Assembly: GCA_000091205.1 (NCBI GenBank)
Contig: AP006502.2
Length of the DNA stretch: 64,000 bases
DNA from: Cyanidioschyzon merolae
Taxonomy: Eukaryota
Reading direction: 5' to 3' (one strand)
Below the pieces are notes generated by a model, which made no database searches, was not told the origin of the DNA, and saw only the letters and a list, made by a program, of their open reading frames with translations. The translations under genes and the position numbers were made by a program. The stretch's first letter is position 1. The number at the start of each line of letters is the position of its first letter. Of this stretch, positions 5,354-43,113 are shown in pieces.

Positions 5354-6060
5354 TGTGCCCATAGATAGTACTGGCGCGCCAACCAAACCAACCAGCACTT
5401 CATCGGGACAGCGAGCGGTACCAGGCGAGTGCGTCAGTATGTGACGCACCAGGCACTAGATGCACCCCGCTTGGTTGCACGCGGACGTTATTCGCCACGG
5501 TAAGTAGAGTTTGGGTTGGTATGCGTGCATGGCACAGTGTTTTGCATATTTGGTCCAGCGTGCACTTTCGTTGTGTGCCCATGGCGATCTCTCAGCTAGC
5601 GACCGAGTTCGTCATAAATACTCTTGATGCGCATCAACCGCTTTCCATTCCCCTGCACCAATCATCCGAACTCGCCTTGCAGTCAGCGATCAACACCAAG
5701 CTCTTCAGGATTGGTGCGCGCTGCTCCAGAAACATTCGCGTACAGGCATGCTGAAATATTATGAGTCCGTCGTTTCACCCCAATTTCTCATGCATGACTT
5801 TATCAGAATTTGATGCTCATTATAAACGAGGCCGGGAATATCGTAACTTTTTGTCTCTCCTCGAGACTTTTGATATGTGAGGCTGGAGAGCCTTTTTCGC
5901 TCTGGGACATGTTTTTCATTTTCTGTCACGCGACGAAAAAGTGTAGGTCGTTGACTCCTCTCATTCTGGCCTACAGCAGCGCCAGAATAACGCAGCACCC
6001 GTCTTCGTTGTCGTCACAATTCTATGTGGTGCCTCGACATGGCCAGCCTGCCCTGCCCCC

Positions 6061-6224
6061 GCATCTGACACGCTTGCAGTGCAGCACTTTGTGGACCCGA
6101 GCAAGATACGACCTCCGTTCTTTTACTTTCGTGGCTTCCCCTGCATCTGACACACTTGCAGTGCAGCACTTTGTGGACCCGAGCAAGATACGACCTCCTT
6201 TCTTTTACTTTCGTCGCTTCATTG
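6061..6224. repeat. Tandem duplication, 82-bp unit x2, ~96% identical.
   Basis: gcatctgacac(g/a)cttgcagtgcagcactttgtggacccgagcaagatacgacctcc... begins at 6061 and again at 6143; read through by ORF 5810..6412 as a repeated peptide. Confidence 0.8.
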
Positions 6225-9159
6225 GCGATGACCCCGTCGTCATTCCATTCAAGTTCTTGAGGCGAATTCCGCAACACGAGCACGTCCACGACATCCGGGA
6301 TTCAGTGATGCCCACCACATCCACATCTAGAATTTCCCTCAACTTCTGTTTGATCGCTCTCCATGCACCGAGCGTACGACGGGATATCGGACGCTTAACT
6401 CCCTCACCCTAGTTTCCGAACTCACTCCATGACCGTCTTTTTGCCACTTGGCACAAGAAGGAGGTGCAGACCCCCTGGATTGCTTTCGGTTCGAAGAAAA
6501 CGTAAATAAAGGTCCTATCCAGGAACGGAAGCGCGTTTGTGGCCTCGTCTGACGTCCAATCTTTGAAAATCTCGTACATACGTGCTCTCAGTGTCTATAA
6601 AAACGGAAAGAAACAAGCATGTGAACTGGGTCAATATTCGCAAGATAGAATCTTAAGCATGTGGAAGTTCGCAAGCGCGTTCGCTACGCCTTGCAGCAAG
6701 TTGGCCTGGAAGACTCAACAAGCGAGACGACGGATTGCATTCTTTCTCGATTACGATCTCGTATGAAGGAGTTCTGCTACAATTTGAGAATGTGAACTTT
6801 TCCTTGGGTTACTTGTGCCCGTTTGTCGTCGTTTGTCTCCCCGGTGGAGTCGGGCGGCACATTTCTTCTGTATACCAGAGGATGTGTTGCACGTGTCCCG
6901 ACGGAATCGTTTTTTCCAGATGAAACGCACCTCCAAACGCTAATCTGGTCGAGAGACCCCAAGATTCCAGATAAGTTTTTCGTTGTTGTAGAGGACGTTT
7001 TCCAGTTTTCAATGCGTGGTATTTGATGCGTCTTGCGTCGACGCGTTTGCGTACATCACGCCGATGGAGTGCATGTCTATAGACCGACGTGCAGACGTCT
7101 CCCCGTCTTTTTGGACCAGCCACCTACTACTGGTTTCAACTCCTTCCCGTACAGTTCGACCCTGAGGGGTTGCCCCATAAAGCTGGATCGCGTCAGTCCC
7201 AGGGGTCTTCTTTGCAGCACCGCATATCAACTGACATTGATGGCGGCTTTGAAGTCTCGGTTCACAAATTCCATGCGTTTCTTGCTGGCGCCGCTGCTTG
7301 TACTCACCAGTGTAAATCATCCTCGAAGTCGTGGCGTCAGTGCTACACCAGTATCGTCGTCGCCGTCCCGTCGGGCAAACACCATTACTGGACTATCCCC
7401 CTACTTCGTCTTCGCCACTTGCTCTTTTCCGCTCGATGGTCGGCGAAAAGGGGAATTTTTCGTTTCCTTTCCGGGAGCCGGCGATGATGGCCCTTCAGGA
7501 TCCCCGACTTTCATATCCATACCTTTTCCTTGGGGTTTATCTCTTCAAATGAACGCACTTCGAACGCGTCTGCTATAAACCGCGAATAAGCATTTGGTGA
7601 CGCACATCTGGATGTGAATCACAATCGAGATGAAATCCATAGCATTGAACTCCTGTGCCATCGGAGCACCGCGAATGTCTGGCACGCGAGGCGCCCAGGG
7701 GACTGAGGTCCGTCCGCCCTACACCAGGGTTGCTGACCCGAACGCTGCGTACCGGAACCGCGAAGGAGCTTGCCAACTCCTTAGTCAATAGTTTGGTTGG
7801 GTTGTATTGGCGTACGCCATATTCGCCTGACTGCGTTGCAAGGTAGCGTAACTGCTTTTGAAACGGAGCTAGCCCTGGTCCATGGTTCGAACGTTGCGGG
7901 CGTGATGCGCGGCCCCATGCCCCGGAGGTTTGCCATTGAGGGCTTCAAGTTCTCGCTCAATTTGATCGTACCGTTTTGCGCTGTTGTGTTCTTTGGTTCC
8001 AGCGATCACTCCTGGCTCGAGCAAGCTGTCGAGCGGTGGCGCTACGTCCAGTATCCCGTCAACGAAGAGTCAACGCTGACCTCCGCTGAAATCACAAGAA
8101 GGGTGTTTAAACAGCCGAAAACCGGGGCAGCTGAGGACCATCGAAAGTGAGCGAGTCTCGCGAAAGGGCGCCGCCCTTGCGCCTTCCGGAAGACACCCGT
8201 CTGGTCACTCCCGATGAGGTTCTGCAATGTTGCTGACGATCTCAACAGCAGGATGCGTGGATGGAAGCGTGGGCTTGCATGCTCGTCGATACCTGAAATC
8301 GAAGAATACCCAGGCCTGCGCAGATAACAGCATCGGTTCAGAAGCCAAAGTCGCAGTCTCCAAAAGCAGATAAGAAATGACCTCGGAACGGCCGGCTGTC
8401 AGACACAGGCACCAGCCACCGCATATCGAAGAAGCTCGCTGGCCTCTATTAGACATCGTCATCTTACCCGAACGCTCACATCATTCCTTGTGAAAAAGCC
8501 ATGGACAACGTAACGCCGAGATCGAGGCCTCTGTGCTGCATAATGCTTGCAACGAGCACGTTGGTAATGTCTGGTGTCAGCGATTTCTCCCAAGCGCCAC
8601 AAGAGATAAACGATTGTATCTCAAGAGCTCACATATAGGGAACGGCTTGCCTCGTTCAGCGCTCGCTTCGAAATATTTTTAGCCCTGTCTGCGAGGCGAC
8701 AACGCGTATCGTAATGCAGATTTTTCTCTTCGACAGAACCTTGGCACAACCTAGCTATCCCCGATCGCAGCGCCTGTTCGCAGCGCACAGGGAAGCATCA
8801 ATCGTTCCACCTGCTTCCAAATTCCACAAGCCGTGCTTTCCCCCGAAGGAACCAGTAATTTTTACGCCATATCGTGCGCCGAGTGCATGCTGTGAACACC
8901 AGCCGTAGCGCCTAAACCGCTGGAGCAGGTGCATCACGGAGACGGAACTGCTCAGGCGCACCACTGAATGCGGTGCAACCAGGGCCACCAGCAGACGCTG
9001 CCTAAGCATCATTAGTCCCGGAATAAACCGCTTTGAAGACGAGTAGAGCAGGTCTCGCAACAGCACCTGCCACTGGGGGGATGGGTATGAAGCACGAGCC
9101 TGGGAGACTCGTCCGGCTCGCTGGACATTCCCTCGAGAATGTAAAGTTTCAGCAATACG

Positions 9160-11770
9160 GAAACCTTTCCCCTTTTTGACGTTTATCGTAAATGGGGAAC
9201 GAAATTGTTATATCGTTGCAATTAAGTCGTGAGTCTCTGTTCTTTTTCCTATAGTGCGATCGATAGGCGCACCTGGGATATCTGGCAGTCTCGAGACACG
9301 ACGCTCACGTCACCGTTGAAGGGGAACGCGATCCTGATCGTTATTATGTTGCTCTAATGTACGAGTAGTAGTTACTTTATAATCGTACCAAATTATAGTT
9401 TTTCAGGTCTATTGTGTTTCAGCCCTCAGGTTAGTATACTCAAGTGTTTTTTCGCGGTTTATGACAGAAGCGTTCAAAAAGCGTTCTTGTTCAAGAAACT
9501 AGAAAAGCAAAGTTATGGAAGAGGAAATGGAGGAGCATGAGGGCACAGCGTCGCCGGCTGCCAGAAAAAAACGGAAAGCATGGCGGAGCAAAGAGGAACA
9601 GGAAAAGACGAAGACGCGGAGGCCGGAGGCCCTACGTCGAAGGCAGCGATAAAGACGACAGTACGACGAGACGGCGGTAAAAGCCTGTCTTCTTACGCAT
9701 ATCAAGGATCCGTACAGGAGAAACCTGCGAGATGCCATCAGAAACCGAGTCGATTCGTACTCCAGGAGTGTTCGTAACGCCTCTTCAGGACTAATGCATT
9801 TGGTGAAGGAGATGTATCGCGACGTGGTGGATTCGAAACCTTCGAGATTACGGAGGAATTTTTCAACATGACCTTTATTCGCCACCTGATGGTTGGCAGA
9901 GGGGAAGCGTCGAAGAAAATGAGCGAGTGGAAGCCCTCCACAAAAAATTACGCCAAATGCCGCGTCGACGCTACTCTATACAAGGTTGATGCGGATATTT
10001 ACACCTACGGTGCGATGAAGAACCATTTGACCATGAACCTCAAACGCTTCATGATACGCGCCGTGTTTGCGCTCTACCCGGGCCTGTCTCGTAGAGGAAT
10101 ATGGACCATCGCCAATTGCATCACAAACGATAGTAAGAATGAACGGGGATCGAATTCGTCGACAAGATGACATCACACGGGAGAAAGAATAAAGATTCCT
10201 TCATCCGCGCGGCTATTCAAGAGCACCGTTCGGTCTTGGGGCTTGTCAACCCAGCAGAAAAGGTATCAGATATGAAAAAAAGATGGAGAAAGATGTTATC
10301 TCCTCATGCTGCGCTATTTCGTGTTTTTGACCGACGCCTCGAACGCAAAACAGAGATGGAGGTAGGTGCGGGACACAAAAGCAGAGTTGGAGCAACGGAA
10401 GGCTACCCTTCAGGCGAAGCGCTTCAACGTCTTTCGGTTATGCAACATCAAGTCGCACTTTGTGAATATCGACTGCAGAGTCGTTCATGGCATCATGAAG
10501 GATATCTGAACGGTGCTCGGTGTAAGCAGGGAGGAGTTCACCGGGGAAAACCGGGAGACGTACTGGAAGCATATCTTCGGCTTCAAACGTGTCAAAACGA
10601 GCAAGCAAAAGTATGCATAGGCATCAGCGAAAGCGATGGAGTAGCCACATGTGTACACTATCAGCGCCTTAGGGTGAATCGTCCTGTTCCGTCTTCAGTA
10701 TCGCCAGTGGCGAAGCATGAGGGAAACAAGAAGGCGGGTCCTACGACGCAGGAGGTGCGGGAGCATGACTTTGTGGTAGGCGCGAACCCCGGAAACACGA
10801 ATATCATGACCATCACAGTACCCAAGCTTGCGGAAGATGGTATTGAAGGCAACCTATGTCAAAAAGACACGCGTTTGTAAGGTTCTAAAGATAGAGACAT
10901 TACTGAGAATCGGGAATAATGAATGCAAGAAAGAAAATTGAGACATGGAATGCACGAGTGAGAGAGCACCTGGAAGCTATGAGCGAGGTGACGAGCCGAG
11001 GAACGGACTTTGGAGCTTTTCGGGAGTTTATGGATGTTCGTGTTGCCCATTGGGATGCACTGTGGGAGGAGTATACCAAGCCCCGGTGGGCTCGTCTGCG
11101 AAAGAATTTCTATTGTGGGAAGCAGCGGGCGTTCGCGAATTTTTTCAATCAGTTGAGTGCCCCGAAGGGGGACGAGAGTCAGAGGCTCGTAGTAGCGTAC
11201 AGAGCAGGGCGCTGGAAGATTCAAAAAGGGTGTACGCCAGCTCCAACGACGAGGGTGTACAAGGAGTGCGCACGTCGTTTCGTTACAATACCGATAGATG
11301 AGTTTCGAACATCGTATACACACCATGAGCTGGGTTGTACACTTCAGAGAGTGGAGATGCAAAAGTGCCAGAGGAGCCCTGAGGATATAGCAAAGTACGG
11401 AGCGCTGACGGAAGAGCAAATGGAAAGGAAGGCGAAAGTTCGAGGGCTACTCGCATCAGTGAATACAACGAACGGGAAGAAACGGATGGAATTCGTGAAC
11501 CGAGACTTTCATACCCCTATCAATATCAGGAGATGTGCAGTGCTGGAGAAAAGACCTCCAGAGTTGACGAGAGCCAACTTTGTTCGACAACCTCTCGAAG
11601 TCGATTTATATGAGAAGAAGTTGGAAGCAGTAGTAGGTGGCCGGTCGAGAAAAACGGGGAGGCGTCTGCACGTCAATTGGCGACTTTTTGTCTAGGGCGG
11701 GTTTCTCGCCACTACTGTACACCGCGGGTATCAACGTTTTTCTTCTGAAAGGCGTTTGTTTTCAGGAGTG
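9160..11770 (+). mobile_element. Compositionally distinct island carrying a Fanzor/TnpB-like gene relic; putative eukaryotic IS605/IS607-type element remnant. Boundaries are approximate.
   Basis: GC drops to ~40% in 9160-9520 and ~48% across the ORFs, against ~57-60% in flanking host genes; contains a RuvC-like TnpB/Fanzor homolog; no clear terminal repeats found. Confidence 0.4.
9515..11695 (+). pseudogene. Fanzor/TnpB-like (OrfB_IS605 superfamily, RuvC-like) gene, disrupted. N-terminal K/R-rich NLS-like region at 9515-9649 ends at an in-frame TAA, then the reading frame changes near ~9860, ~10150 and ~10900.
   Basis: ORFs 9868..10170, 10167..10880 and 10919..11695 are consecutive in different frames. 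The TnpB-like RuvC-I block reads VVGANPGNTNIMTI where GxDxG is expected. A YKECARRF..IDEFRTSYT..C block corresponds to the TnpB YK..G..vv.VdP.yTSq.C block. A RuvC-III-like NRDFHTPINI is at ~11498-11527. The N-terminus reads MEEEMEEHEGTASPAARKKRKAWRSKEEQEKTKTRRPEALRRRQR. Confidence 0.55.
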
Positions 11771-17390: not shown

Positions 17391-19962
17391 GGCGCAAGTG
17401 CACAGCGCACTGCGTCGCCGCTGGTGACAAACGCACCAGCTGGGTGTATGTCCAGGAGACGTTGCCAGCGTCTCAACTGGTGGTTTCGAGTGTGGTATGC
17501 GATCAGCGAAAACGAACAAACGTTACACTCGGATGCGCAACGCGTTCCGAGAAGCCGAAAGAGACCTCAGTCGCTCCGGATACGATTCTGGATAAAGAAA
17601 ATCTCAGAGCACGATTGCTCAGGAGAATACGGAAATGTCGGAATAAGAAATGGAACCGGTTCTCCAACATAGCATGACACACGCTTATTATTGGGTCGCT
17701 TTCCGTTGTTTTCAACGCAACGCTTTACAGGATGATTGCATGTACGCTTCGTTTTGCGACCTCTTATACCCTGTTTCAAATACACTGGAGTCTCCTTTGT
17801 CTCCAGCGCCGATGTCAGCAGGCGAGGCATGTTGAAGGCTGCGTTATCGCCCCCATTTGCGAGCACTGAGCTCTTGGCAACGGGGTTCATACACAGACGG
17901 TAGTTACGATCGACGCCTCGATTAGCATTTTCATCTCGTTTGTACACAGCCGCAATACGCTATTCGCAACGGTGACACTCAACTGCGGTCAGGTGTTCCG
18001 CGATGCGTCCACCATGCATACTCCTACGAGAGTCGCCCTAGTGCGCGTGAATGCTTGCCTCAACGCTCGGTGCATGCCCTTGACTGTACGAGGAGGCTGC
18101 TCTCGATGGCTTTTTTCCATTGGCGGGCTGTGTGCCGTACCCTACAATCAGGGGCTACTTTCAGGCGATACCCTCGACGAGTACTGTGTCCGCTGCACGC
18201 GCAAACGCATGCTGCTCTATTCGATAGGGGATTGGTGGTGGAACGCGATGGTGTCCATGATGAGACAAATACCAGATGGAAAATTCTAGGTTGGTGATCA
18301 AGTCGTGAAACTTTGATCCGTGTAGGCTCTTTTCATGCAAAGCGATGACGCAAATTGCTCTGGAGGCGGTCGTTGCAATGAATCAATTCCGAGTCCGAGT
18401 CTTTTTTCCATGGAAATGAAAGAGACGAGAGCCCCCGGGGAGCATGCCCCATTAAGAATATATAATGGTGGTGGAGAATCCTTTTTTATGGATGCACACA
18501 CAGAGAGAAAGATTCGTCGTTCCTACGAAACAGATAACTTGACTTGACGAGTTCAACGATCTTGAGGCACGAGCTTGTGAACAAGCCCTCAAGGGACGAC
18601 ATCTAGTTTTTGTCCTCGTTAATCTAGTGGCGCAAGTGCTGCGTCAAGGGCCTGTTTTGAAATAGACGCATTGAAAAATTGAAGGACGCGTGACCTGAGC
18701 ATCCTACACGTACGTTTATATGAAAAGCGGAGTCTTGTACTTGCGGGTAATGTGACGATATCGCTTATTTTGCGAGTCCTGGTGCAAGGGCGTCGCTTAT
18801 GATCTTGACTCCCGTCCTATGACGAATTCCATCGGCACGGTGTCGAAAAAGTCGCACCGAAAATACAACCAAGAATCTCAAAACTCCCTATGAATCGATA
18901 AACCCTATTCTCTATCGTCTGAATGCCCAAGCTATACATCTAAGAAAAAGGTTTGGAAAACATCGAAAACCGGAATTAGAGCAAGCAGTTCCGTGCTCTG
19001 TTTTCATCTAAAAGGAATGTAGACGCTAAAGGTAAACATCATAACGCGTGTACCCAATTTTTGACGCAACACATTCCTGTTGTTGCATCCGAGCCCACTT
19101 GTCGTTTACTGTCGCCAAATGGAACAGATGCTGAACGCTTCAAACGCTCGCGAGAAACCATACCCCCGGTCGTGGGCTATCACAGATGCGGCTACGACCC
19201 GATTTCAACATATGCCCAAAAACGTACTGCTTCCAAAAGACTGTCCAACTGGATGAGGTTTCGAAAGGTTTTGTGGCATCTCGAAGAACTCGAAGAGTCG
19301 CGCACGTGCCAACTACTTTTTGTTCTCCACTGTAGTCGCTAGTGCGACTCCACCAGATATTCTTGTTGCATGCATGCATGCATGCGAGATTAGTCCAAAG
19401 TTCAAGCGCGCGTTGCGCTTTTCACGATGCCAATACGATAGCACAGAGATCGCATCCAAAGACAGATTCATATCAAAGGGTTGGAGAATTCTTCATATAC
19501 CGTTTCATAAACGTTCGTCACACATGCAAACTAACAAAGCGCAAAAACTCGACATGATACGATTTTTTACAAAGTACAACACTTGGATCCAGTCGCACTT
19601 CTCGCTACCAAGCACAAATTGCGATCGGATATATCTTTTCAAGAACTGCATTTTATGGGCGCATCATGTCCAGATCGTCTACGGGTTCGAGTCGCCTCGA
19701 AATGCCACCAGCGCTGACCACTATGCGGTACAGCTCATGAGGCTCAGGTCGCGGGGTGCGCTACATATGCAGCCATTCCCTGAATGGATGGTTCGAGGTA
19801 CGAATCCGGATGTTCCCGTTCGTACAAAGGTAGCCCTGGCAGCGTTCAGGGTGTGTCTCCTAGGAGCCTGCTGCCACATTGGGCGACTTAATCACTGCCT
19901 AACTCGCATGGGTAGTTGCACCGACGATCTTGTCGAAAAGCATCAGCGTCATTCCATGCAAC

Positions 19963-21519: not shown

Positions 21520-21747
21520 TTACTGCTCCATGAAATGCGCTGCTGGAGGATTCTCAGAATAGCATCCGCTAATGCCGTGGGCGAATACGGATGTAGACGA
21601 GCAGGCAGCTGCTGGGCGCACCGCTGGTGTTCGGTGTCGAACTCGGTGCGGGTGGCGTTTCATGCTGGACCGCTGGAAGCGACGAGCGTAGCCTCGGTAC
21701 CCAGTGAATAGCAGCTTCAACCAAGTTTCTATTGTCGTATAAGAAAA

Positions 21748-22313
21748 TAATGGAACAGTGAACTGCTCGTTCTGGTCCTGTATTTCCATTTGTTTCCGAT
21801 CTTGTTCTTGATAAACAGTTCAACAACCGTACAAGTGCAGTCAGGGCTTTCAGAATCATAGGTCGTTTGAGGCTGGTCGGTTGTCTGTTCAGAGAGGCGC
21901 TTTCAACGCACTGACGCTGGGATTCCCTATACCACCGGTATCAGGATGACTCGCGCCACTGCTGAACAGGGGTTCGTAAGAAACCGGACACCATGATCGA
22001 AATCGAACGTGCAAGCCGCCAATCTTTTAATCTTCTTACGTGTGGCGTGCTTGGCTCACGCATGCTTCTAACTATCGATGTCTCCGTTTCGAAGCAACTC
22101 GTGAGCGCAACGAGCCACGTCAGTGACTGGACGACGAAAAAACTCGGCATCATTCTCTGACGACTCGATTGCAAGCTCACGCCGAAAGTTCACGGAAAGT
22201 TTCACGTCGAAGGATCGACTTCGCTCGGAGCAGAAATCCTCCTCGCTTTGTGGCCATCGATGAAACGGCATTCGACGGCACTAGCATCTCGATGCCTCTC
22301 AGGGGGTATGCTC
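21748..22313. repeat. Dispersed repeat family, copy A (~566 bp), ~98% identical to copy B.
   Basis: aacagtgaactgctcgtt...cagggggtatgctcc shared with 30463-31025; the ORF track shows matching 79-aa, 67-aa and 75/85-aa ORFs in both copies. Confidence 0.9.
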
Positions 22314-25300
22314 CCAAAAGTTTTTTACCAAAAGGAATGTATCGTAAAGACAAAAGTCAGAGTGTTCGCGAAAGAGCCTTATGCTGTGTCTGCTAGATAG
22401 CAGAAATTGGCCTCACATGTGTTGGTCAGTCGTTGTCGGGTCAGCAGCAGCATGATCCCCGCTAATTTCAGTCCTTATTCTGAACATTGATCACTCAAAA
22501 CAGCATGTATCAAACGTGTTCCACGCGACCGTCTCCTTGTCAATCACTTCCATTGCATACGTTCGCCAGGAAATGCAGTCAGACAAGCCACCAGGTGTGA
22601 GAATTTCATATCCTAATTCTCTACGGTGATCAAGGGACACGGGTTGGCAGCGAATGCAGCACTGATACCGCAGAACATCCCGTGTTGAAAAACCCACCAA
22701 CTTTTTTTCGAACTACGACGCGAACTATTATTATGAAAGGACCATGTGTTCCTCTCACTCGATTACATGTCATTTGGACGAGCTGCTAGACCTCGATACG
22801 GCCAGTTAAATCAAGGCAAACCCATGTTTGTCAAGAAGAGACAAGCGAGCATTCGGACAACACCAGCCCTGGCAGTGTTCGAATCATGCGGTCGCCTGCA
22901 AATCGCCAAACGAACAGGGTCGTTCAGCACCTCTTCCTTCTTCGGAACATGCTTCGTGGCTTCTGCTTCCGCAATCTTCTGCCCTGGTCGTAGACAAGGT
23001 CGCTTTGCATCACCATAAAGCGGCAAAGGAGTATCCTGATAGGATAGGCTTTGAGCTGCTCTTCGTGCGACGCCATGCTCTCTGGTTCAGTCCCATTCAA
23101 GGCATGCGTATTGATGGCATACGCCTCTTCTGGTCTCGCGGATCACTAAACGGGGCCTATGCATCCGTGACACCGAAATATGCAATATAAAATATAGGAC
23201 TGCGAAGTTGCTTACTCATGCAAGTCTCGTCGAACTCCGTTCGCTTTGATGCACCTCGTCAAGCAACGATGAACAGCCGTTCCAGAGGCCCGACTGCCAG
23301 CGGCCCCATTCCTCAGAATACTTTCCATCAGACGCCCGTGCGACTACACATCTGATGCTCGGGACAGGAGATGCAAGCGGTCTGGTCATTGGATCAGCAC
23401 TTTGAACACGCACTTCCCAGAAAACCCTGACGCCTCGCTGCGACACCACGGCGATCGATAGACCCACAGCGCAGGTGCTCTGGAATCTCATGCCAACCTC
23501 GAGCCGAAAATCAAATGTTAATGAAAGACGAGCGCTTCGCATGGAGCGCCATGTGGGCGTCAGATCCTCGTCTTACTTGCCCAAACAAGTGGAGACAACT
23601 CGGAGCGGCGCCTCTGGTGTGGATCGAGGCAAATGACCAGTTGGTGTGAAAGAAATAAAAGTGGCAGCGACCTTGGGCGAGAGATGTCGCAACGAGAGTG
23701 CGCGTCGCTTCAGATCGTCTACGCCCGTGTGCTGCTCTCTGCTTCGCAATGATGGATGCCGTATTCCGAGAATAGATGAAATCTGGTGCCTGCTTTGCTT
23801 GCATTTTCCGCTACGGTATTTTCGTGGACCGAACCCGCCAGAAAGAAAGCAGATCCAAGCTCTCTATGCCTACGTCCTCGCTTTCTGAGGCAGTTGTTCA
23901 AAATGATCCCCTCTTTGCCAGACCGGGGCCCATTCGATTCCCGTCGACACTTGTTCCCTGTAATGTACACCCTGCTCCTTGGGGTGCTTCCGGTCTACAC
24001 AACCAAGTATGACGCGATCGAATCAATCCACATAGAGCATCGGCGCAGCTGGTTCAAAGTCTCTGGTTTACAGGGAGGAAATCGGAACCAGTCTACAACG
24101 ACGACAGAAACCGATGTCATTTCCATCTGCATGCATTTTGTTGTGAAACCTAGGCCTAACTCGACCAACGATACCCATTTTTTAACCGCTCAAGCCCGAT
24201 ACAGGGAAAAGCTTCGATAGATACGCGTGGATCCTGAGTTTCGGAACATCACACCCGCTACCGAGCGCTTCATAATCCAGGAAGTAGCCTAGGACACGGA
24301 CGGAAAGCAGATCAAGTTGTTCGACTTTTCCAAAACTCGATATTTCCCGAGTTGCCGCTCGACTGTAACGCGCGGAGGCGTACCAACAGGTGAACTGGCG
24401 GCGTCAGAGCCCAGCTCAACGCCCTGAGCACCGTTTCGAGCGGACACGGATGTTGTACGATTCATTCATACTGTACGTGGGCGTCCAAATGGCTCATGTC
24501 GATGACTTATGGCAGAAGGATATGCACTTGCGCTGGTGTCGGGAACGATCCCGGCTGTACGGAGGCAGCTAGCGTGTATCCACCGACTTTTCAATGCGTT
24601 GGAAACGCGTATGACCGATATGGCGCGTCGTTCGGTGGTGGCATCTTGCGCTGGACCTGTCGCAGAGCACAACGTCTGCAATCGTGCTCCTTCGACCAAC
24701 GTGTGCAACAAGCGTGCGGGCCGATTCTGCACGACTTTTATCGATGCGTCTAGAATGACATGACACACATCACGAACTTTTGTGCGCGAAGACGCTTTTA
24801 GAAATGAAGAGCGTGAAATAGCGCCGGATGCATGAGACGATGTATAGGGCAGGCTGGCCGAACCTCAGATGGCGAGGCACTCGTATATGAGAGGCTCGGT
24901 ATGGTGGGGCTTCACAGGCAACAACGCTTGCCAGTAGGTTCTCAACGGAAACTCTAATGCTTCGGTGAACATCTGGAAATATCTCGTGCTTTCGAAGAGA
25001 TTCGGGCGGGTTCGTATCTAGCGAACGTTCCAGGTAAGCATATAATGCGAGCGCGGGCACGATGCTGAGACGCTGAAGACGTGCGATGACAAAATTTATC
25101 CAGCCAGGAGACAGGGACAGAGAACACTGGATTCTTGCCTGGTGCGACGCACTCTAGCGGCACGTCTCAGCAATCCAGAACGGCTCTAACGCCGCGTATA
25201 TACAACGGGAAATGTTGTCCTTGGCAATTGGTGTGAATGATTACGGCGTTTCGTTATTCAGCATTACCAAATATATCCTATCTGATTCCAAATACATGTC

Positions 25301-25351
25301 ATCATCGGAGCGATCGTGAAAGTGGATGCGTTTCCGCATTTTACCGTATGG

Positions 25352-26248
25352 CTAGAACTGCGTAGGGTACGTCGGTGCTTCGCCAGGCAGCGCAGACTCG
25401 AACGCACCAGCAGACGCTTCCCAGCTCGAAACAGCGGCTTCATGCGGGACTGCTGCGGCGCTCCACTCCGTTGGGCCAACAGCGTATGCACCCATCGTCA
25501 TCATCTCGCCAAAGTTTCCCCCAGAGAACATATCAGCTGGACCGGGAACCGTAGATGCTGCTGCTGCCGCCGCCGCAATCGCTGCTGCCTCCGCCTCTCG
25601 TGCTGCCGCGGCCGCTTCTTCCTCCTTCTTCACTTCTTCAATATCTCGGTAGAAGAAGAGGTCCACCATAACATCCCAGTCGCCAGTTGCGGGAATTTCA
25701 CCGCGCAGGCGCAACACCTGCCGACAAAGCAGGTACCACATCAGTGCGATGCTCGCCCTGGACTTGTTATTGCACGGAATCGCGACGTCGATCAGCTGTA
25801 AAGGCGAGTCTGTATCACAAAACGCAATCGTGGGGATATTCGCATAGGCCGCTTCCCGCACAGGCTGTGCGTCTACGCGTGGATCAGTGACGATCAACAA
25901 ACGCGGTTCAGTGAAACGCCGCTCCATCTGGTTCGTAAGCTGACCCGGCGTCCAGCGGCCTGCGCAAGCTGTCGCACCTGTATACTGCGCGAACTTGAGC
26001 ACCGCTCGCTGCCCATACGGCCTCGCCGACACGGCCACCACGTCTGCCGGCGTGTCCACTGCTGCAACTATTCGTGCTGCAAGTTGCAGTTTCTCCCAGG
26101 TTTTCGAGAGGTCAAAAATATGCACACCGTCCGCTCTCCGCTTAAATACATATGGAGACACGAGACAGTCACAGTTTTTCGTACCAAGGTGCGTGTTGCA
26201 CGCGAGCATTTTCGCAATGTCGTCTTGACGCGAGGCTAGCGTCGCCAT
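25352..26248 (-). CDS. RPSA: 40S ribosomal protein SA (uS2 / RPSA / laminin-receptor type) with Ala/Glu-rich C-terminal extension.
   Basis: [69 protein letters not shown] conserved blocks; start at MATLASRQ. Confidence 0.9.
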
Positions 26249-26415
26249 TTTGCGTGTTCCTCGCAGCGGCCGCCCCGACGTTCCAGTCACCGCAGAAACC
26301 GAAGATGTCCTAGAGAAGAGACGTGTGGTGCTGCGCTGATCAGCGCTAGAGTAAGCACCTTTTTACCGATTTATCCTCTGTTGGCAAGTGAGCACGCTTT
26401 AGAGGATGCTGTCCA

Positions 26416-27717
26416 GTGCACGTACGCACCCGCGTCTACACCCAGCGACTTGGGAAACGCTGCCCCGATGAGCCTGGCTCATGTGGCTGGTCAAGAGCGG
26501 CCGCGCTCAGGGACGCCCGCCGCGACGCAGAAAAACTGTATAAAAAGGACATAACATGTCACGTGACCCACGAGTTTTGCCTTCTGAGGCACGGCAGGCG
26601 TGTCCGTTTCGCTTTGAGCTGTATGCGTCAGAGGTACCGGGTGGCAGTGCGAAACGCTCGATTCTTGCACCTACTTGTCCTGTTTGGGGTGTTTGTTGTG
26701 TCGTTAGCGATTTTATATGCGTCTTCTTTGACGCAGTTAGACGCTGGGAAGCAGGATACACGTTCTGCTGTAGCAGAAGCAGCGCGTGCCCAGCAGCGAC
26801 TTGTTCGACTGTACCGCAAAGCACTTTCGTTGGACGATCCCACGCACTGTACGTTCATCATAGGTGTGGGCCTGCAGCCGAGAGGACAAGACTTGCGCGG
26901 TCTTTTCCAGCATTTTGGTGCCGGCCGCTGGTTTCGGAAACCTCGCGTGTACTATTATGGCGGGCTCAGCGCGGATGCGCTTCGACTTGCCCACGGAGCG
27001 CGTCGTCGTGCTTCCCGGAGCGATATCCTATTTTCTCGTCCGGAGCGTGATGGCGCTATCGACGGCGTGATAGGCTGTGCTGTATCGCACCTGCTTGCTG
27101 TACGCAGCGCTCTGCAGCGCGGCTGCAAAACAGCGTTGTTTTTGGAAGATGACACATCTCTGGGCCTTGTGCGCTACTGGGACAAGCCCGTGGCGGCCGC
27201 TATTCACGATTATGCCTCTGATGAGTATCCGGTGCTACAAATGGAGCTCAAACTCCGTTCCTTTCTGGAACGGGGCGATTCGGGAGCGCTCGGTCTCGAG
27301 CACCTTCCCGTTCGATGCGGTTGGCGCCACACTGTGCCGCACCGCTTCAAAGTAACGTATGGAACGGGTGCCTACGGCATGTTGCGTACTGGCATGGAGC
27401 GGACGCTACAGCGTTTCACTGCCAATGAGGCGTTCGCAGGACGTGCTCGTGCCTCCCATCTGGGACCGGTTGATGTGTCCAAGGTCATTGCGGCAGGCGG
27501 TCACGCCGACGTTTACGTGATTTTGAACGCGACAACGACGAAAGTGCTCTGGCCTCCGTACTTTCACGAAGCGTTCGACTCAAAAAGTATCGTTCGACCC
27601 CGAGAGGGACGCGGAAACTCCCACCAGCCCCAGCACATCGCCTCTGCTAGATACGCAATCAAGGCGAATATGCGCTGGGCGGAGGCTTGTCGAGAGTACG
27701 TCCTCGAAAATGAATAG
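26416..27717 (+). CDS. Putative glycosyltransferase family 25 (LPS/collagen beta-galactosyltransferase-like) type II membrane protein. Tentative.
   Basis: N-terminal transmembrane segment LHLLVLFGVFVVSLAILYA. GVIGCAVSHLLAVRSALQRGCKTALFLEDD resembles the GT25 G..GC.lSH....a.I.EDD signature. Confidence 0.5.
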   Translation: MHVRTRVYTQRLGKRCPDEPGSCGWSRAAALRDARRDAEKLYKKDITCHVTHEFCLLRHGRRVRFALSCMRQRYRVAVRNARFLHLLVLFGVFVVSLAILYASSLTQLDAGKQDTRSAVAEAARAQQRLVRLYRKALSLDDPTHCTFIIGVGLQPRGQDLRGLFQHFGAGRWFRKPRVYYYGGLSADALRLAHGARRRASRSDILFSRPERDGAIDGVIGCAVSHLLAVRSALQRGCKTALFLEDDTSLGLVRYWDKPVAAAIHDYASDEYPVLQMELKLRSFLERGDSGALGLEHLPVRCGWRHTVPHRFKVTYGTGAYGMLRTGMERTLQRFTANEAFAGRARASHLGPVDVSKVIAAGGHADVYVILNATTTKVLWPPYFHEAFDSKSIVRPREGRGNSHQPQHIASARYAIKANMRWAEACREYVLENE

Positions 27718-28343
27718 TGTATTTTTGTACAACAATCAAGCTGGTGACTCGAAAAACAAAACTAGACAAGACGGTGAACGGTGCCGCCCGATGATGTCGA
27801 CGACCGAACGCGGGCACTGCACCCGTCCCGAAGCTCGCGACGCCAGCTCTTGCGCATAGGAAGAAGCGTGCGAAACATTCATGTATCTGGGTGACGAGAT
27901 CACGTTGGAAGAGCAGCTCATGATTCGCAAAACATCGCCTGCTCGAGTTCGAACAGGATACTGCGCGCGGTTTCCGATGCACAGCGCTTTTGGGACCGGA
28001 GCCGAACGTACAACTGCATCATCAGATAGCTCTGGGAACCGTGGTGAACGGATCGCTTTCTACGTTTAGAGGCGCTGCCAATAGCACAGCATAAAACCAA
28101 AATCGGCTGAGGACACTCGACCTGCGCATGCCACGCATCTAGCAGGGTTGTTCACTGGCTCGCATCGAGCGCACTAAAGGCTTCTCGTGCGATACGTGCT
28201 TCGAGCAAGCCTCGAGCACGCTTTTCGACTCTCGTTCCGGTGAGATTTCCACCAGCGTGGGTGCTTGCATAGAAGCATCCCTCTACATGATATCCACAGC
28301 GGACACGCACATCTAGAAAACAGAGACATTGGCTCAGTGTTTT

Positions 28344-29588
28344 CTAGGAGAGCTCTTCCATAATTGCATCCATTTTTTCGATGACTGCAGCTGTGAACTG
28401 TTTCGTGGTCGCCTTGCCGCCCATGTCAGGAGTGCGTATATCCGTCTCCTGGTACACTGACATCACCGCGTCCTGAATAAAATCGGCGAAATCAAACATT
28501 TTCAGGTAACGCAACATCATGACGCCAGCGAGGATCGTTGCGGTCGGGTTCGCGATTCCCCGCCCCGAGATGCCCTTGCCAGCGTGTCGCACGCCCTGCT
28601 CGAACATGGCACCACTAGGGCCGATATTTGCGCCGGGAAACAGCCCCGTGCCGCCACCTAGACTTGTCGCTACGCTACCAACGATGTTTCCGTAAAGGTT
28701 CGGCAACAGTACAACGTCGAATTGCTCGGGGTTGCTCACCATTCGCATACAGGTCGCATCAACAATCATGCTTTCAAACTCGATAAAAGGATACTTGGAA
28801 GCAACATGTCGTGCGCATTCCAAAAAGAGACCATCCGCCGACTTGAGAATATTTGCCTTGTGAACACAAGTCACTTTCTTACGGTTATTTCGCATCGCAT
28901 AACGAAACGCGTACTCCGCAATGCGCAACGAGTGCTCCTCGGTCACAATCTTGAGCGACTCCACCACACCGTCGACGGCCGAGTGCTCGAGACCGCTGTA
29001 CTCCCCTTCCGTATTCTCTCGAACTAGAACAATGTCGATATCGTCGTATTTGGCCTTGACGCCCGGCATCGGGAACACGTGAACCACGTTCGCGAAGAGA
29101 TCGAATCCCCGCCTCAGGAGGATATTGATCGATGTGCCCTTGAAACCATAAGGTGTGTGAAAGGGTCCTTTCATCACTAGTCGATTTCGATTTACTGCAT
29201 CAATCACGGATGCTGGCAAGCCCTTCTCTGGCTCGGGAATATGATAGGTCTCGAACTCGACGGGTACATGTGCGGCCTCGAAAACCGCTACCAAAGCCTC
29301 CATGCACTCGGGCCCGATACCCTCGCCCGGCAGCATCGTTATCAGTTTCGTGTCGCCGACAGCAGTTGCCGCTGGATACACGTTATAGACATCGCCGTCG
29401 ATCGACGTTGGCGAGATAATCGGCGAGCCCTGCCGAAGCGCCGGTGACACAAAGCGACGTACGTCGGTGATATCGTGGCCCTGCGCTGAGCCACTCACAA
29501 ATCTACGCAAAAACTGCCCTCGACACAAAGTGTCCAGCGTGCACTTTCGAAAACACGTCGCAGCTTGACGAAGAAGTGTGTGCACCAT
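28344..29588 (-). CDS. IDH: NAD-dependent isocitrate dehydrogenase subunit (IDH3-like), mitochondrial.
   Basis: Strong collinearity with IDH3 alpha: LPGEGIGPE, VRENTEGEYSGLEH, HKANILKSADGLF, LPNLYGNIVGS, IANPTA..LAGVMMLR, TPDMGG; N-terminal presequence-like region. Confidence 0.85.
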   Translation of the reverse strand: MVHTLLRQAATCFRKCTLDTLCRGQFLRRFVSGSAQGHDITDVRRFVSPALRQGSPIISPTSIDGDVYNVYPAATAVGDTKLITMLPGEGIGPECMEALVAVFEAAHVPVEFETYHIPEPEKGLPASVIDAVNRNRLVMKGPFHTPYGFKGTSINILLRRGFDLFANVVHVFPMPGVKAKYDDIDIVLVRENTEGEYSGLEHSAVDGVVESLKIVTEEHSLRIAEYAFRYAMRNNRKKVTCVHKANILKSADGLFLECARHVASKYPFIEFESMIVDATCMRMVSNPEQFDVVLLPNLYGNIVGSVATSLGGGTGLFPGANIGPSGAMFEQGVRHAGKGISGRGIANPTATILAGVMMLRYLKMFDFADFIQDAVMSVYQETDIRTPDMGGKATTKQFTAAVIEKMDAIMEELS

Positions 29589-30462
29589 TGCCCTTGGGTA
29601 CAGGAAAAAGACCCGATCGCAACTGACCCGTGGTACGCTTTGTCGCGCTCGCCGGGGTTCGACGCTCGCACCAGCTTCGACTCAGCACGGACGCAGAACT
29701 CGTAGAGTCTCTCCCGAGACTGTTTTGACGGTGCTCTGAATTAGCGGATCAGGGTTCGTTGGCTTCGATTAGGGGAAAATCTGCCACTTGATCCCGTTCT
29801 AGAAAAGCGAACGCGAACGCGCTACCACCGTTGTGCACCAATAGGCACGGGGTGGCGTTCGAGCATGCCGTCCCGGGCGTTGCAACGTTCGCCGATAATG
29901 TGTCAAACTTTGTTGGCGCTTTTTCTTACCAGGAAAGTCAACGAAAAATGGATACCCAGGGTGGTTTTTAAAAGTAGGGCCAAATCAGTGAGCTATTTGC
30001 GATAGCTGACCCTTGTGCTGGAAGTCTGGAAGAACACTTGCAGTTAGAGGCCGGGTCGTCTTCGAACAACTGTGAGAAATATGCATCGTTAAGCGACACG
30101 CTACAGAGAACGCTGGGAACCGCGTCAGTGTGCACCTGTACCTCTTTACTGTACAAGGCCTCAGCAACGTTGATGCAAGCCCTGATGAAGAGCTTGCTCG
30201 CTTTCGTCTACGCGTTTCACGGTCGTTCGAATGTTCGGAAATGGTCTGTGCGTTCACCCCGGACGCGGATTCCGTTGTAACCGTGATATGTTCTGGAAAG
30301 AAGGGACGCGACGAACTGGTGGCGGGCGCGTCTTCTTTTCTCTTTGCTATGATAAACGGAAACTGGAGCAACGAAAACCCAGGCGATCCGTTTCCAGCTT
30401 GTACTCGTTCTCTTCAGTACATTAGTGTTCGCCTGCACTGCATCTAGGTTTACAAAAAACGA

Positions 30463-31140
30463 AACAGTGAACTGCTCGTTCCGGTCCTGTATTTCCATTT
30501 GTTTCCGATCTTGTTCTTGATAAACAGCCTCAACAACCGTACAAGTGCAGTCAGGGCTTTCAGATTCATAGGTCGTTTGAGGTTGGTCGGTTGTCTGTTC
30601 AGAGAGGCGCTTTCAACGCACTGACGCTGGGATTCCCTATACCACCGGTATCAGGATGACTCGCGCCACTGCTGAACAGGGGTTCGTAAGAAACCGGACA
30701 CCATGATCGAAATCGAACGTGCAAGCCGCCAATCTTTTAATCTTCTTACGTGTGGCGTGCTTGGCTCACGCATGCTTCTAACTATCGATGTCTCCGTTTC
30801 GAAGCAACTCGTGAGCGCAACGAGCCACGCCAGTGACTGGACGACGAAAAAACTCGGCATCATTCTCTGACGACTCGGTTGCAAGCTCACGCCGAAAGTT
30901 CACGGAAAGTTTCACGTCGAAGAATCGACTTCGCCCGGAGCAGAAATCCTCCTCGCTTTGTGGCCATCGATGAAACGGCATTCGACGGCACTAGCATCTC
31001 GATGCCTCTCAGGGGGTATGCTCCAAGAGGCTCCCCGTCTCTTCTATTTGCATGGAAATGGATTTTGGACTCGGACATGAGTCACCTACGTAATCCATTC
31101 CAATGCAGAGTGCGTCTCCGCTCTACATACACGTAGCGTA
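30463..31140. repeat. Dispersed repeat family, copy B. Core 30463-31025 is ~98% identical to copy A; the 3' extension to ~31250 is shared at lower identity with copy C.
   Basis: Direct sequence comparison with 21748-22313 and 37400-37700. Confidence 0.9.
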
Positions 31141-31922
31141 GACGGACCGAAATCTCTCGACGTTCTCTCGGGCCTGGATTTTGCCTCCAGTACCTGTATC
31201 ATCATGGAGAACGTCGTGTTCCCACGATTCTCTACCGAATCTATAAAGCATGTGCGTGCTCTTCGATCTGATATACTGCTCGCCTGAAAGGATGTCCCAG
31301 ATGAAGCGCGTGATCTTCACGTTCGGCACCGGGAGCTGCTACGGAGGTAGAACATTCAGGCAAGCCTTCTGGAGCCGTCGAGGACACGTGCCGAGCATTG
31401 AAGCAAACGCTCACGCAGCACACGTCAGCGCTAAGAGGAACTGGTTTGGCAGGCACGTATCGAACACCTGACCACAGCCAAATGTCACCACTGCAAAGAA
31501 GGGCACATCGAGCCTGCGTCCAAAGAAAATGAACAAGTAGATGCCGTGCATCGATCCCGACTAACTTCTATCCATGAAATGCGATGACCACATCGTAAAC
31601 AGGAAACTCGGGCTATGAGCACTGCAATCCCAATCCCTGGACTGTTGACATCGTATCTGAAGCGAAAGGAGCGACCTGCCGACTGAACGCCGAACTTCAG
31701 AGAAACGGGAAAAGATCGCAATCGCGGGACGATTCCGCAACAACAGGCGCTCGTGACAAATAGAAGAGACCCAAACTTTCATGCAAATATCCTTGTTAGA
31801 CGACACGTTCCATTTTACGCTGACACAGGTGTAGCATCATACATCGGAACCCTACACGGACACGGTCAGAGTGCATACGCATCCAGGCGTGTGTCGCCAC
31901 CGTGCCTAATGGTATCGTGATT

Positions 31923-33580: not shown

Positions 33581-33860
33581 TCGTCGATCGTCAGAAGAGA
33601 CAGTCCTGCCATGCTCTGTTCTCGCGAAGCATTGATAGATTCGACCAGTACCCAACTGGATACGCAATGGTTGTCGATCGTCAGAAAACATAGTCCAGCC
33701 ATGCTCTTCTCTCGCGAAGCATTGGTAGATTCGACCAGTACTCAACTGGATACGCAATAGTTGTCGATCGTCAGAAAACATAGTCCAGCCATGCTCTTCT
33801 CTCGCGAAGCATTGATAGATTCGACCAGTACCCAACTGGATACGCAATGGTTGTCGATCG
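33581..33860. repeat. Tandem minisatellite, 90-bp unit x ~3.1.
   Basis: ttgtcgatcgtcag recurs at 33581, 33671, 33761 and 33851; units are >90% identical; it lies in the divergent intergenic region between MDHAR (-) and the HAT-repeat gene (+). Confidence 0.9.
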
Positions 33861-34204
33861 TCACCGGGGCGACTTTTGTTCGTTCCTCTTCGAGCATCAA
33901 CTTCTGCTCGACGCACTGCTTCCAATATCCAGACACCACAAACGCCCAAGGATCCAATGCTTGCTTTCTTCTTGGTCATACACTGCATCACCAAGAACGC
34001 GATAAACTTGGAACAGAAAGTGACATAGCAATCATCAGCAGCTGCTGTAGCTCCATAGAACGCTCGAACGCTGGTGAGGGCGCTCGAGCCGTGCGCTCAG
34101 CGCCAGCGGCAGTCGAGGCACCCGCAACATCGTCAACCGGCAACGGCAATCACCGCGTGCTCCCCTGAGACAGTTTTCACGGTTATACTGTATATATTGT
34201 CGTT

Positions 34205-36595: not shown

Positions 36596-37399
36596 AGCGA
36601 CCAGATGCGACTGTATTAGGTGGCTGTTTACAGAGCGGGCCTCTGCGAGGTTTCGGTCAGGCAGGGTGATCCGTCGTGCACGGAGGCGTTGTGACAAACC
36701 TCAGTGCTTTCGAAGCATGGACTGCGCCACATGATGGTCGCGCTTTTCGAACAGCGCTTGGCGAGCTTGACGAAGCTCGTGCCCCCAGCGTCGCTTTGCT
36801 GCGTTTGACAATCAGGGCAATGCCTGGTACAATGGGGCATCGTTTGCATGTGGTTCGCATGAAAGTCGACGTTGCGACGGGGACGGCGAGACCCTCGCTG
36901 CGACGCCGGTGTCAGATAAACGTGGAACTCTGAACTGCTGGCCGTGTTCCTGCTTTGACATTTTTTGCGACTGTTTTCCATACGTTCAGTCTCAAGTTGC
37001 AAAGGGCAGCAATAAGGGCTTGAGGATCCAATCGTTGTCCCAGGATTCGCAGTTGTCCTGTCGGTGTGGCGCCTTCAAATATCTCCCGTTGGAATTCGTT
37101 ACTCTACGGTTATCAAGATAATTTGCGACGCCCCCGAAGAAGCGTTTCACAACACAACCAACATCACGCTCCAATGCTTACGTACAAGCCGCCGCTCTGC
37201 TCTTATCCTTATGAGAAACGTGATCAATTCATGCATGCTTCTTGCTCCCGATCTCATCATTTCAGGGTAACACTCGGGCGCAGCAATTCGCCCTGCCGGA
37301 TTGACAAGCGAAACCAGACGACCTTAAATGAGGACCTTTTCACCAGCTCATTCCGAGAGCTGGCTGAACGTGTCATGTCAACGAATCGATTTACTCCGA

Positions 37400-37700
37400 A
37401 AGACAAATCTGCCTGTCCATGTGTGTATCGACGAAATGGCATTCGACAAACTCATGTTACGTTGTAGGGAATATACTCGAAGAGACTCTCGTCTCCTCTG
37501 CTTGCATGAAAAAAAGACTTGGACTCGGACATGAGTCCTCGCAGCGAGCGCCTCACTTCTAGAGTGCGTCACAGCTTTGTACGCAGTAATCGTAGACGAA
37601 TCGAATTTTCACTGGTTGTTCTCCAGCCTGCGTTTCCCTTGCGGTACTTGTGCCATCATGGACAATGATGCCATCCACATTTCGACCATCGAATGGAGCA
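37400..37700. repeat. Diverged (~70%) third member of the dispersed repeat family, copy C, carrying the conserved GGACTCGGACATGAGTC motif and flanked by a (TG)n microsatellite at 37716-37731.
   Basis: catcgacgaaatggcattcgac... and ...ttggactcggacatgagtc...agagtgcgtc...cgtagacg blocks are shared with copy B (30990-31150). Confidence 0.6.
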
Positions 37701-39238
37701 GCGTGCACCTATGTGTGTGTGTGTGTTCGTGCATCGTACAGCGCGCTCGCCGAAACGCTCGCCCAGAAGAAACCCCTGATCGCAGGGTACAGGAAACCGC
37801 TTGGAAACGGAGGAGAGCATTGAGTGGTTCCTTCTGTATCGGCCAAGGGCATCTGTCGAGCGACGAAGCGAGCGTTCACGCTACCCAAAGCGGTTCTCCG
37901 AAAACGGAGTGTCATGGACGTTTGAGAATACCTCACCACAGCCAAGTGGCACCACTGTGAACTGCGCACTGAGCCTGTATACAAGGAGGATAGGAGTAGC
38001 GAGCGGAGCGCAGGTGCAGCTTCCGCCCTGGCGTGAAATACGAACAAGACGGCCAAAAGTGCCACGGCTGGACTTTATCGCCGCGATGAACTCCCGTCGA
38101 CGGCTGACAATGAACCCGGAGAGAATTGTACGGCCGACGGTTGCAACGCAGGATACAACAGGTCACAAAAGGAAGCATGCACATAAAAATACCGCCATGG
38201 CTGCTGTGCGCAGCAACGAAAAAAGACCCAAACTTTCCACGCGAGCTCGCTGCCCGGTCCCATTTTGTTCCTCGTACGGGTGTTGCGCGGCGCGTTCCGC
38301 ATGCAAGGCCGCCGTTCCTTCGAAGCAGATCGAGCGAAATCTGGTAGGCGGACAGCACATGTCGCGGGCCTCTGACGTGTCCCCGCTCTGATCCTGATGA
38401 GCGTTTCGCTCGATCGCCTCAGATGTTCCAATCGAATGTCGTGGCAGCCTACAGCGCGGCGATCGTGGCGCGCACGGCGAAACGTTTCGTCCACAAATAG
38501 AACCGTAGTTTCACCTGAATTATGTTCCACCACCAGACGCGTGTCCTCAAACGCTTTTCGCGGTTTATAACAGATACGTCTGAAGTGCGTTCATTTGATA
38601 CAATATAAAATCTGAAGGATCGTTATGGACATGGAAGACGGGGATTCTGGATGGTGGTTGTCATCGCCGAGTTCGACCAGGAAATCAAAAAAATCCTCTT
38701 CTCGCCGACTATCGAGTGACCAGGGGTATGTGATGAAGAAATTGGAGAGAAAGGCGAGAAAAGGTGCCTGCCCGACGTGACGATGACGGGACTTCCGTGA
38801 TTCAGAGGGCGCGAGTTCGACGACTGCGTCTAAAGGTGCGTTCTGGCAGTGACAGGGAACGCACAGAGTTCGTGCACCCAGACTTTAACGCAGCGATGAA
38901 TACCAGGTGATATGAGGTATTGCACACGCGACCCGACGAGCAGAGACGATCCACCAGCTTTGTCGGGCAGCCTTTCGGAGTCGAAGTGTGCAAGGAGAAG
39001 CTGAACCCGATACAGCACGGGGGCCCGTCGAGACAACCAGGAAGGCGTCTGCAGTTGCGAGTCATATCGACCCTCTGTGGTCGTGAAACGTTTTTCGTTT
39101 TATCGGACAGTGAGAACCGGACACGTGTCCGCGTGCGATCGCAAGCGACTGGCGTCGCATCGTTTTGCGATACGCTTGCCAGAATCTTTTCGAATTCTTG
39201 TTCTAAACGCGTGCATTATTGTGCGTTACAGGGATACA

Positions 39239-42902: not shown

Positions 42903-43113
42903 GAGATTCGATTGAGGTCACTCCATCATACTGGTACTATTCAGGAAAATTCGATTTCTCTAATGAACATATACGCTGTTGCCTCTGTCGATACAGGGCC
43001 TCGATTCCATCGAGGTGACTCCACTACACTGGTGCAATTCAAGAACTTGTTCGATTTCCCTAACGAACATGTACGCACTTGCCTCCATCAATACAGGGCA
43101 TCGATCACATTGT
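42903..43113. repeat. Diverged tandem duplication, ~105-bp unit x2, ~75% identical, immediately 3' of the 746-aa gene.
   Basis: gattcgattgaggtcactccatcatactggt...atacagggcctc is followed by gattccatcgaggtgactccactacactggt...atacagggcatc. Confidence 0.7.

Follow-up and report, generated by a model that had tools for sequence, protein, structure and literature searches.

Ectopic gene conversion and concerted evolution have been described for the Ty and delta elements of yeast, for primate Alu repeats and for segmental duplications, and gene conversion normally requires an identity far above 55-60% to start. Cyanidioschyzon merolae is reported to lack classical non-homologous end joining (NHEJ; PMC6635534), and homologous recombination and gene conversion are in routine use for its transformation (PMC3764038), so that template-dependent repair is the expected route in this host. 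The published repeat inventory of the species comprises 26 non-LTR elements, eight class II elements and 253 copies of a 'WSV486-like' repeat, the 'novel interspersed repetitive element' of Nozaki et al. (2007), which has a mean length of 3.2 kb and a truncated open reading frame (ORF) weakly similar to wsv486 of WSSV; no LTR elements were found (PMC1955436). The P-MITE survey gives no MITEs for C. merolae (PMC3964958), the Ensembl repeat track, which is mostly the product of RED, masks 28% of the genome, and annotation of the species may miss unknown repeat types (PMC5405695). Rudenko and Korotkov (2024) claim that many C. merolae repeats are too diverged for standard tools (PMC11050394). Here we describe a near-identical repeat pair, copies A and B, in a window of 64,000 nucleotides (the whole stretch of DNA analysed) from a 1.62-Mb chromosome of C. 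merolae 10D. On balance we favour the view that both are relics of an old transposon family, kept alike by repeated ectopic (non-allelic) gene conversion, over an origin in recent transposition.

A reading made from the sequence alone had singled out two ~566-bp copies, ~98% identical and 8.7 kb apart, at 21748-22313 and 30463-31025, and both the pair and, to within a few bases, its coordinates are borne out. Tracts A (21754-22314) and B (30463-31024), of 561 and 562 nt, are direct repeats spaced by 8,709/8,710 bp, and are 98.4% identical by pairwise alignment, with eight mismatches, one one-base indel and a longest identical run of 246 nt. When aligned with 100-nt flanks, identity opens at AACAGTG (21754/30463) and closes at GGGGGTATGCTCC (22314/31024; terminal letters ...GCTCC), and the flanks of the two copies are unrelated to each other on both sides. 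A repeat search of 20-33 kb recovered the pair as collinear blocks at 21745/21820-22119 and 30454/30530-30829, with a 1-nt indel between them, and detected no inverted repeat inside the 566-bp segment. There is no third high-identity copy of the segment within the window. The gene context described in that reading likewise stands: A lies by the start of the 518-aa gene, CMT409C (BAM83353; hypothetical, 513/518 aa; 19963-21504/21519, minus strand, exact protein match), and B between the genes for NAD-IDH (BAM83356; 28344-29588, minus strand; ORF, Pfam and exact protein match) and MDHAR (BAM83357; 31923-33401, minus strand, exact protein match). No annotated protein gene overlaps either copy, since the protein accessions run consecutively. 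The 8.1-kb segment between A and element B (22315-30447, hereafter S) holds a gene-free 3 kb, the gene for ribosomal protein S2 (25352-26248, minus strand; ORF and Pfam), a 433-aa ORF (26416-27717, plus strand) and the NAD-IDH gene. The gene-free part, from copy A to the ribosomal protein S2 gene (22315-25351), shows the highest between-strain substitution density among large intergenic segments (38/3037 and 25/1965).

A and B are members of a diverged, non-coding dispersed family with a unit of ~1.37 kb, a description of which was not found in the literature. Relaxed BLASTN with the A/B repeat returned full-length matches at three further intergenic places, at ~60% identity, where 30 shuffled queries and the reversed one drew a blank, and an extended query showed element B (30443-31836) and elements C, D and E to be colinear over 1.2-1.44 kb at 60-61% identity (E-values 1e-83 to 1e-96). 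End to end, element B is 56-61% identical to C, D and E by relaxed BLASTN, MAFFT and nhmmer, and it keeps matching the family beyond 31024, where the A/B tract ends. An nhmmer profile built from these four elements finds four full copies in the window, namely B (30448-31826, plus strand, 1,379 bp, with its left terminal repeat at 30448-30465 and its right at 31807-31826), C (36909-38277, plus strand), D (17635-19013, minus strand) and E (49872-51239, plus strand), the last three placed by BLASTN, MAFFT and profile alike. It also finds two fragments: A (21754-22314, plus strand), which is the 5' ~570 bp of an element and covers profile positions 23-625 only, and F (57794-58339, minus strand), a 3' part covering positions 840-1409. 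Environmental contigs place members G and H just beyond the window end, and a further member (L038/L041/L049a) lies on a separate environmental contig. Full copies (B, C, D, E, G and L038) are uniform in length, at 1,368-1,379 bp, and their homology stops at identical termini, outside which the flanks are unrelated. The contig L049 carries a full copy (4008-5409) and partial matches at 8862-9266 and 9886-10663, that is, three family matches inside 7 kb, which suggests that family copies cluster locally there too. As to a segmental duplication that takes in flanking unique sequence, the outcome named beforehand as counting against a mobile origin, two high-identity copies are indeed what the window holds, but the unique flanks form no part of the duplicated sequence; segmental duplication was rejected, since only a portion of a single family element is shared at high identity, between flanks that bear no relation to each other.

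Unconverted pairs of copies have pairwise identities of 0.53-0.59, with no substructure. Of the columns aligned among five independent copies, fractions of 0.244, 0.376, 0.274 and 0.106 show agreement of five, four, three and two copies, against 0.238, 0.391, 0.281 and 0.089 predicted by a uniform-rate star tree of equal mean identity. Such values fit a single ancient burst and subsequent neutral decay that has carried each copy ~25% from the ancestor. A protein-coding reading of the family was tried and rejected on several counts: tblastx among the copies gives matches in all frames, with frame switches; the copies have no ORF at a common position; conservation across the family has no 3-base periodicity; the 10-copy consensus, of 1,376 nt, contains 11-15 stops in each frame and no long ORF; and neither consensus ORFs nor real ORFs match Pfam. 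Rfam gave no match at gathering level across the whole window or at E-value level in element B, and a tRNA scan found nothing. The 79-aa minus-strand ORF noted at the outset is found in A and B alike, and the suspicion that it is a by-product of identity is supported, in that the paralogs have no common ORF, no period-3 signal and no Pfam match.

The left end of the 10-copy consensus, GTGTCAGATTAAAATGGAAC, matches the reverse complement of its right end, GTGGCAGAATAAAATGGAAC, at 18/20 bases, a terminal-inverted-repeat score reached by 0/5000 shuffles; decayed versions of the terminal repeat are visible in each family copy, and the ends of the unit read GTGTCAGA...TCTG. The sequence-only reading had reported no terminal inverted repeats and copies that begin after an A-rich stretch. 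The first statement holds for the 566-bp segment but not for the 1.37-kb family consensus, with its 20-nt terminal inverted repeats, and the stretch ahead of each copy turns out to be the decayed left terminal inverted repeat. Flanks of the same copy match no better than flanks of different copies at k = 6-10, a comparison for target-site duplications that has little power in copies decayed by ~25%. On the strength of its terminal inverted repeats, discrete ends and star-like tree, the family most likely consists of what remains of a non-autonomous class II (DNA) transposon after one ancient burst. A solo LTR or LTR retrotransposon was rejected as its source, as the unit is without TG...CA ends, and a SINE or 5'-truncated non-LTR retroposon was rejected in the absence of a poly(A) or simple-repeat tail at either end; moreover, A has the left end of the family and F its right end, and 5' truncation alone cannot produce both.

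The family resembles non-autonomous class II elements with terminal inverted repeats in its dispersed intergenic copies, discrete common ends and uniform length, and likewise in its ~20-nt consensus terminal inverted repeats, lack of coding capacity and star-like burst phylogeny. It departs from MITE-like elements in that its 1.37-kb unit exceeds the usual MITE limit (<800 bp), and in the great age of its copies, at ~25% from consensus. Like the repeat of Nozaki et al., it is unclassified, interspersed, specific to C. merolae and intergenic; in size and ORF content, however, it does not fit the published description of that longer repeat, having a 1.37-kb unit bordered by terminal inverted repeats and no conserved ORF, and it is denser here, with eight members in ~73 kb against ~1 per 65 kb. 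The families of Rudenko and Korotkov are position-weight-matrix constructs of <=600 bp that cover coding DNA too, and the portion of that study considered here sets out no ends, terminal repeats or consensus like those of the 1.37-kb family (PMC11050394).

Comparison between strains bears directly on how A and B came to be near-identical. Orthologous loci were taken from many Cyanidioschyzon metagenome assemblies, and A and B occupy constant sites in every environmental strain sampled. At nine sites in 21770-21807, the A copy of 10D and five environmental A copies share one state and 4/4 environmental B copies share another, yet in 10D the corresponding patch of B (30479-30516, plus strand) has the A-type base at all nine. 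Across this left block, A matches 10D B at 60/63 positions, 10D B matches environmental B at 53/63, and A matches environmental B at 52/63; the left blocks of A and of B are each ~75% identical to the consensus. The simplest reading of the nine-site patch is an A-to-B conversion specific to the 10D lineage, and the left-block result is robust given that the 10D sequence is finished and that, in the assemblies, unique flank is no more than one k-mer away from this block. Of the data compared here, only the sequence of 10D and the left block, which is linked to its flanks, escape the caveat of assembly merging. An indel/SNP at 21818-19 is B-type in 3/6 A copies and so is polymorphic among A. In the core of the repeat, eight sites separate strains whereas 0-1 separate A from B on one environmental contig, figures to be read with the proviso that assemblers may merge near-identical sequence; in 10D, A and B differ at six core sites, and their alleles are a mosaic of those found elsewhere. 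Set against two environmental strains, 10D has 0.95% and 1.45% substitutions in converted tracts and 0.37% and 0.23% in unconverted family DNA, making the tracts 2.5-6 times more diverged (P = 0.009 and 1.6e-6), as would be expected if conversion moves paralog differences around. Both 10D and the resolved environmental contigs have the arrangement repeat-S-repeat with parental flanks and no flank exchange. The A/B tract is bordered on the left inside the terminal repeat, and on the right where A's homology to the family ends.

The number of sequence contexts in which the repeat occurs was surveyed with a 47-nt pattern of 23 family-invariant positions, which in the window picks out elements A to E, against no match predicted by chance. 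Over JGI metagenome contigs, the pattern hits 18 loci; those that carry A/B-type sequence have it in the context of A, of B, or of a hybrid with A on the left and B on the right, with no third context. As the scan is insensitive to diverged paralogs (~0.1-1% expected per copy), it is uninformative on family size, and the statement that there are only two high-identity copies applies to the window and a small number of metagenome assemblies.

A second case lies further along the same region. Element E carries a 636-bp tract (50068-50703, plus strand) that is 98.4-98.9% identical to element G, which is known only from environmental contigs, with ten assemblies carrying it, and sits ~18 kb downstream in the same orientation, just past the window end (tract at ~68.26-68.90 kb on the window scale; L051:3784-4419). 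Outside the tract, E and G are ~55% identical over their first 200 bp and last 550 bp, with flanking identity ranging over 0.4-0.65. E/G is an independent second conversion tract, cleaner than A/B in having diverged homology on both sides, and shows that the conversion process acts on the 1.37-kb family in this region.

Under ectopic conversion, a break in one direct copy would be repaired by synthesis copied from the other copy, 8.7 kb away in the case of A and B, without crossover, and in a host without classical end joining such repair would presumably be homology- or microhomology-primed copying. Crossovers would go unrecovered because they would delete the IDH and ribosomal protein S2 genes, which are essential, and if conversion maintains the 98% identity then that identity does not date the copies. 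In several respects these tracts behave as do those known from Ty/delta, Alu and segmental duplications: sharp blocks of near-identity stand inside diverged paralogs with flanks unexchanged, paralogs within a genome share strain-variable states, and the partners lie in cis, kilobases apart. They differ from known ectopic conversion in the low identity of the tract flanks, which at ~55-60% falls well short of the presumed requirement for homology, in the truncation of partner A at the very point where the tract ends, and in a host that lacks classical NHEJ (PMC6635534). To reconcile the low identity with initiation of conversion, either the A/B pair may from the outset have been more similar than typical paralogs are, or repair may tolerate very diverged templates; alternatively, short conserved blocks may serve as microhomology for invasion at ~55-60% identity. 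The left block, in which A and environmental B are 83% identical against an expected 58% (P = 4e-5), fits a pair that was already closer than typical paralogs.

What copy A was before conversion is the question on which the best-surviving alternative turns. A's segment corresponds to the 5' ~40% of the 1.37-kb unit, and nhmmer run with --max, as an unfiltered profile search, detects no family homology to the right of 22314. At 21737-21756 (plus strand), A has a decayed left terminal inverted repeat, GTATAAGAAAATAATGGAAC, which matches the consensus GTGTCAGATTAAAAT at 10/15 outer bases at a fixed position (P ~0.008). The outer 15-17 nt of A and B are ~72% identical, with several substitutions and a 2-nt indel. 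The tract thus opens inside the terminal repeat of two separately diverged ends, and A is a 3'-truncated family member, or at least much older than a divergence of 2% implies. The idea that A was newly copied from some arbitrary part of B was rejected, as the high identity starts within terminal repeats that have diverged separately. In a subtler form of the same idea, a single event of templated break repair or of template switching during replication placed ~570 bp of B's 5' part at the A site, and later conversion merely polished a copy of intermediate or recent age that was never an independent family insertion. This would account for the abrupt stop at 22314, with no family homology past it, for a left block whose identity (83%, A against environmental B) clearly exceeds the 58% usual for independent paralogs, and for A and B being nearest same-strand neighbours. 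It sits poorly, however, with outer ends that differ between A and B and yet each resemble the consensus terminal repeat, and with a left edge that coincides with the family terminus, as a random duplication breakpoint would not. The identity of the A and B sites in all sampled strains further requires any such event to predate those strains. We consider a one-off duplication of this kind unlikely, and continue to favour homogenisation of two old family members by ectopic conversion.

It is less likely again that the 8.7-kb unit comprising S and one repeat is a cassette that enters or leaves by recombination between the repeats, through Campbell-type integration or as a pop-out circle, such that contigs running from MDHAR to CMT409C via a single hybrid repeat represent real empty or excised sites. 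Such hybrid junctions occur in contigs of four assemblies (L001/L048, L002, L014 and L033) for which different assemblers were used, many assemblies give S alone as a contig of 8.2-8.85 kb with ends inside the repeat (L023, L024 and L047 among them), and one of these contigs, L023, has a 141-nt terminal overlap that would close it into an 8,709-bp circle. A de Bruijn graph, however, yields just such contigs for a repeat-S-repeat arrangement; S contigs co-occur with hybrids in the same samples (L047 with L001, and L024 with L002); and eight contigs (L003, L006-L009, L017, L018 and L040) resolve repeat-S-repeat as in 10D. Loss of S would also remove IDH and ribosomal protein S2, and the analogous E/G hybrid (L046) would delete ~18 kb that include TIP49/RuvBL, GrpE and NOP9, an implausible loss for a haploid. 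The S contigs in the same samples and the loss of essential genes entailed by the E/G hybrid make a real 8.7-kb deletion unlikely, and contigs that skip 8.7 kb or 18 kb are probably graph-resolution chimeras. In practical terms, many public metagenome assemblies of C. merolae contain contigs that the 561-bp and 636-bp tracts have broken or rendered chimeric.

A still less probable proposal is that the repeat is a functional module, such as a common promoter or enhancer or a non-coding RNA gene, whose identity is kept by selection. The left ends of A, B and E do face the 5' end of a divergently oriented gene, and between-strain divergence is lower in unconverted family DNA than in the pool of 'other intergenic' DNA. 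The deficit vanished, however, in a segment-by-segment check of intergenic DNA, in which family elements (0.2-0.65%) fall inside the intergenic range of 0-2%, because the pooled excess comes from a few hot spots, namely 22315-25351, the 33.4-34.2 kb array and 54345-54567; selective constraint on the family was rejected on this ground, and between-strain rates per segment give no evidence of selection on family elements. Against a functional module there are also the column spectrum, which is that of neutral, uniform-rate decay, the different gene context of C and D, the lack of an Rfam match, and the converted tracts, which are more and not less variable between strains. Least credible of all is recent transposition of an active ~566-bp element (a SINE, MITE or solo LTR), for although it would produce a near-identical pair with unrelated flanks, the window and the Cyanidioschyzon metagenome contigs yielded just two high-identity contexts, the segment is the 5' part of a longer unit into the remainder of which B runs colinearly, it has no poly(A) tail, TG...CA ends or inverted repeat, both sites are filled in all strains with paralog-specific edge differences fixed in the environmental ones, and the other members of this old family, at 55-60% identity, are ~42% diverged from each other. 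Of the two origins that had been offered for the pair, recent transposition or gene conversion, only the second is thus upheld.

The description of this genome as repeat-poor holds at high identity only, for the window contains at least three diverged dispersed families. The second of these, at 7086-7635, 38509-39053 (inverted), 9401-9577 and 11428-11674, is 63-73% identical over <=560 bp and unrelated to the 1.37-kb family; one copy lies 200 bp past element C. A third repeat pairs 24229-25204, which sits between A and B, with 63028-63993 (inverted, and reaching the window end) at ~59% identity over ~1 kb. Tandem repeats also occur: between the MDHAR gene and a TPR/HAT-repeat gene lies an array of 3.1 copies of a 90-bp unit (33583-33863; 93% matches), and the intergenic segment around it (33.4-34.2 kb) is a hot spot of between-strain divergence (16/803). 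There are small tandem duplications at 6056-6220 (82 bp x 2, 95% matches) and 42905-43110 (~100 bp x 2, 78%).

A 98% identical pair in a supposedly repeat-poor genome looks like a young mobile element, and here its identity would instead reflect repair-driven homogenisation of very old copies. Families of elements with terminal inverted repeats and concerted evolution of dispersed repeats are both known kinds of phenomenon; what is unusual is the low identity of the tract flanks. In this region, the intergenic DNA of C. merolae consists largely of repeats too diverged for standard detection, and one family with clear terminal inverted repeats is present where surveys gave no MITEs and eight class II elements. 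More tentatively, and with considerable doubt on our part, C. merolae may routinely repair breaks in intergenic relics by copying ~0.6-kb tracts from paralogs that are ~55-60% identical and lie 9-18 kb away. If so, this repair would be homeologous and probably microhomology-primed, and the family would constitute a natural record of ectopic repair, with two events preserved within 73 kb. Two tracts between ~55% identical paralogs offer a testable handle on break repair in what is reported to be the sole free-living protist that lacks classical NHEJ.
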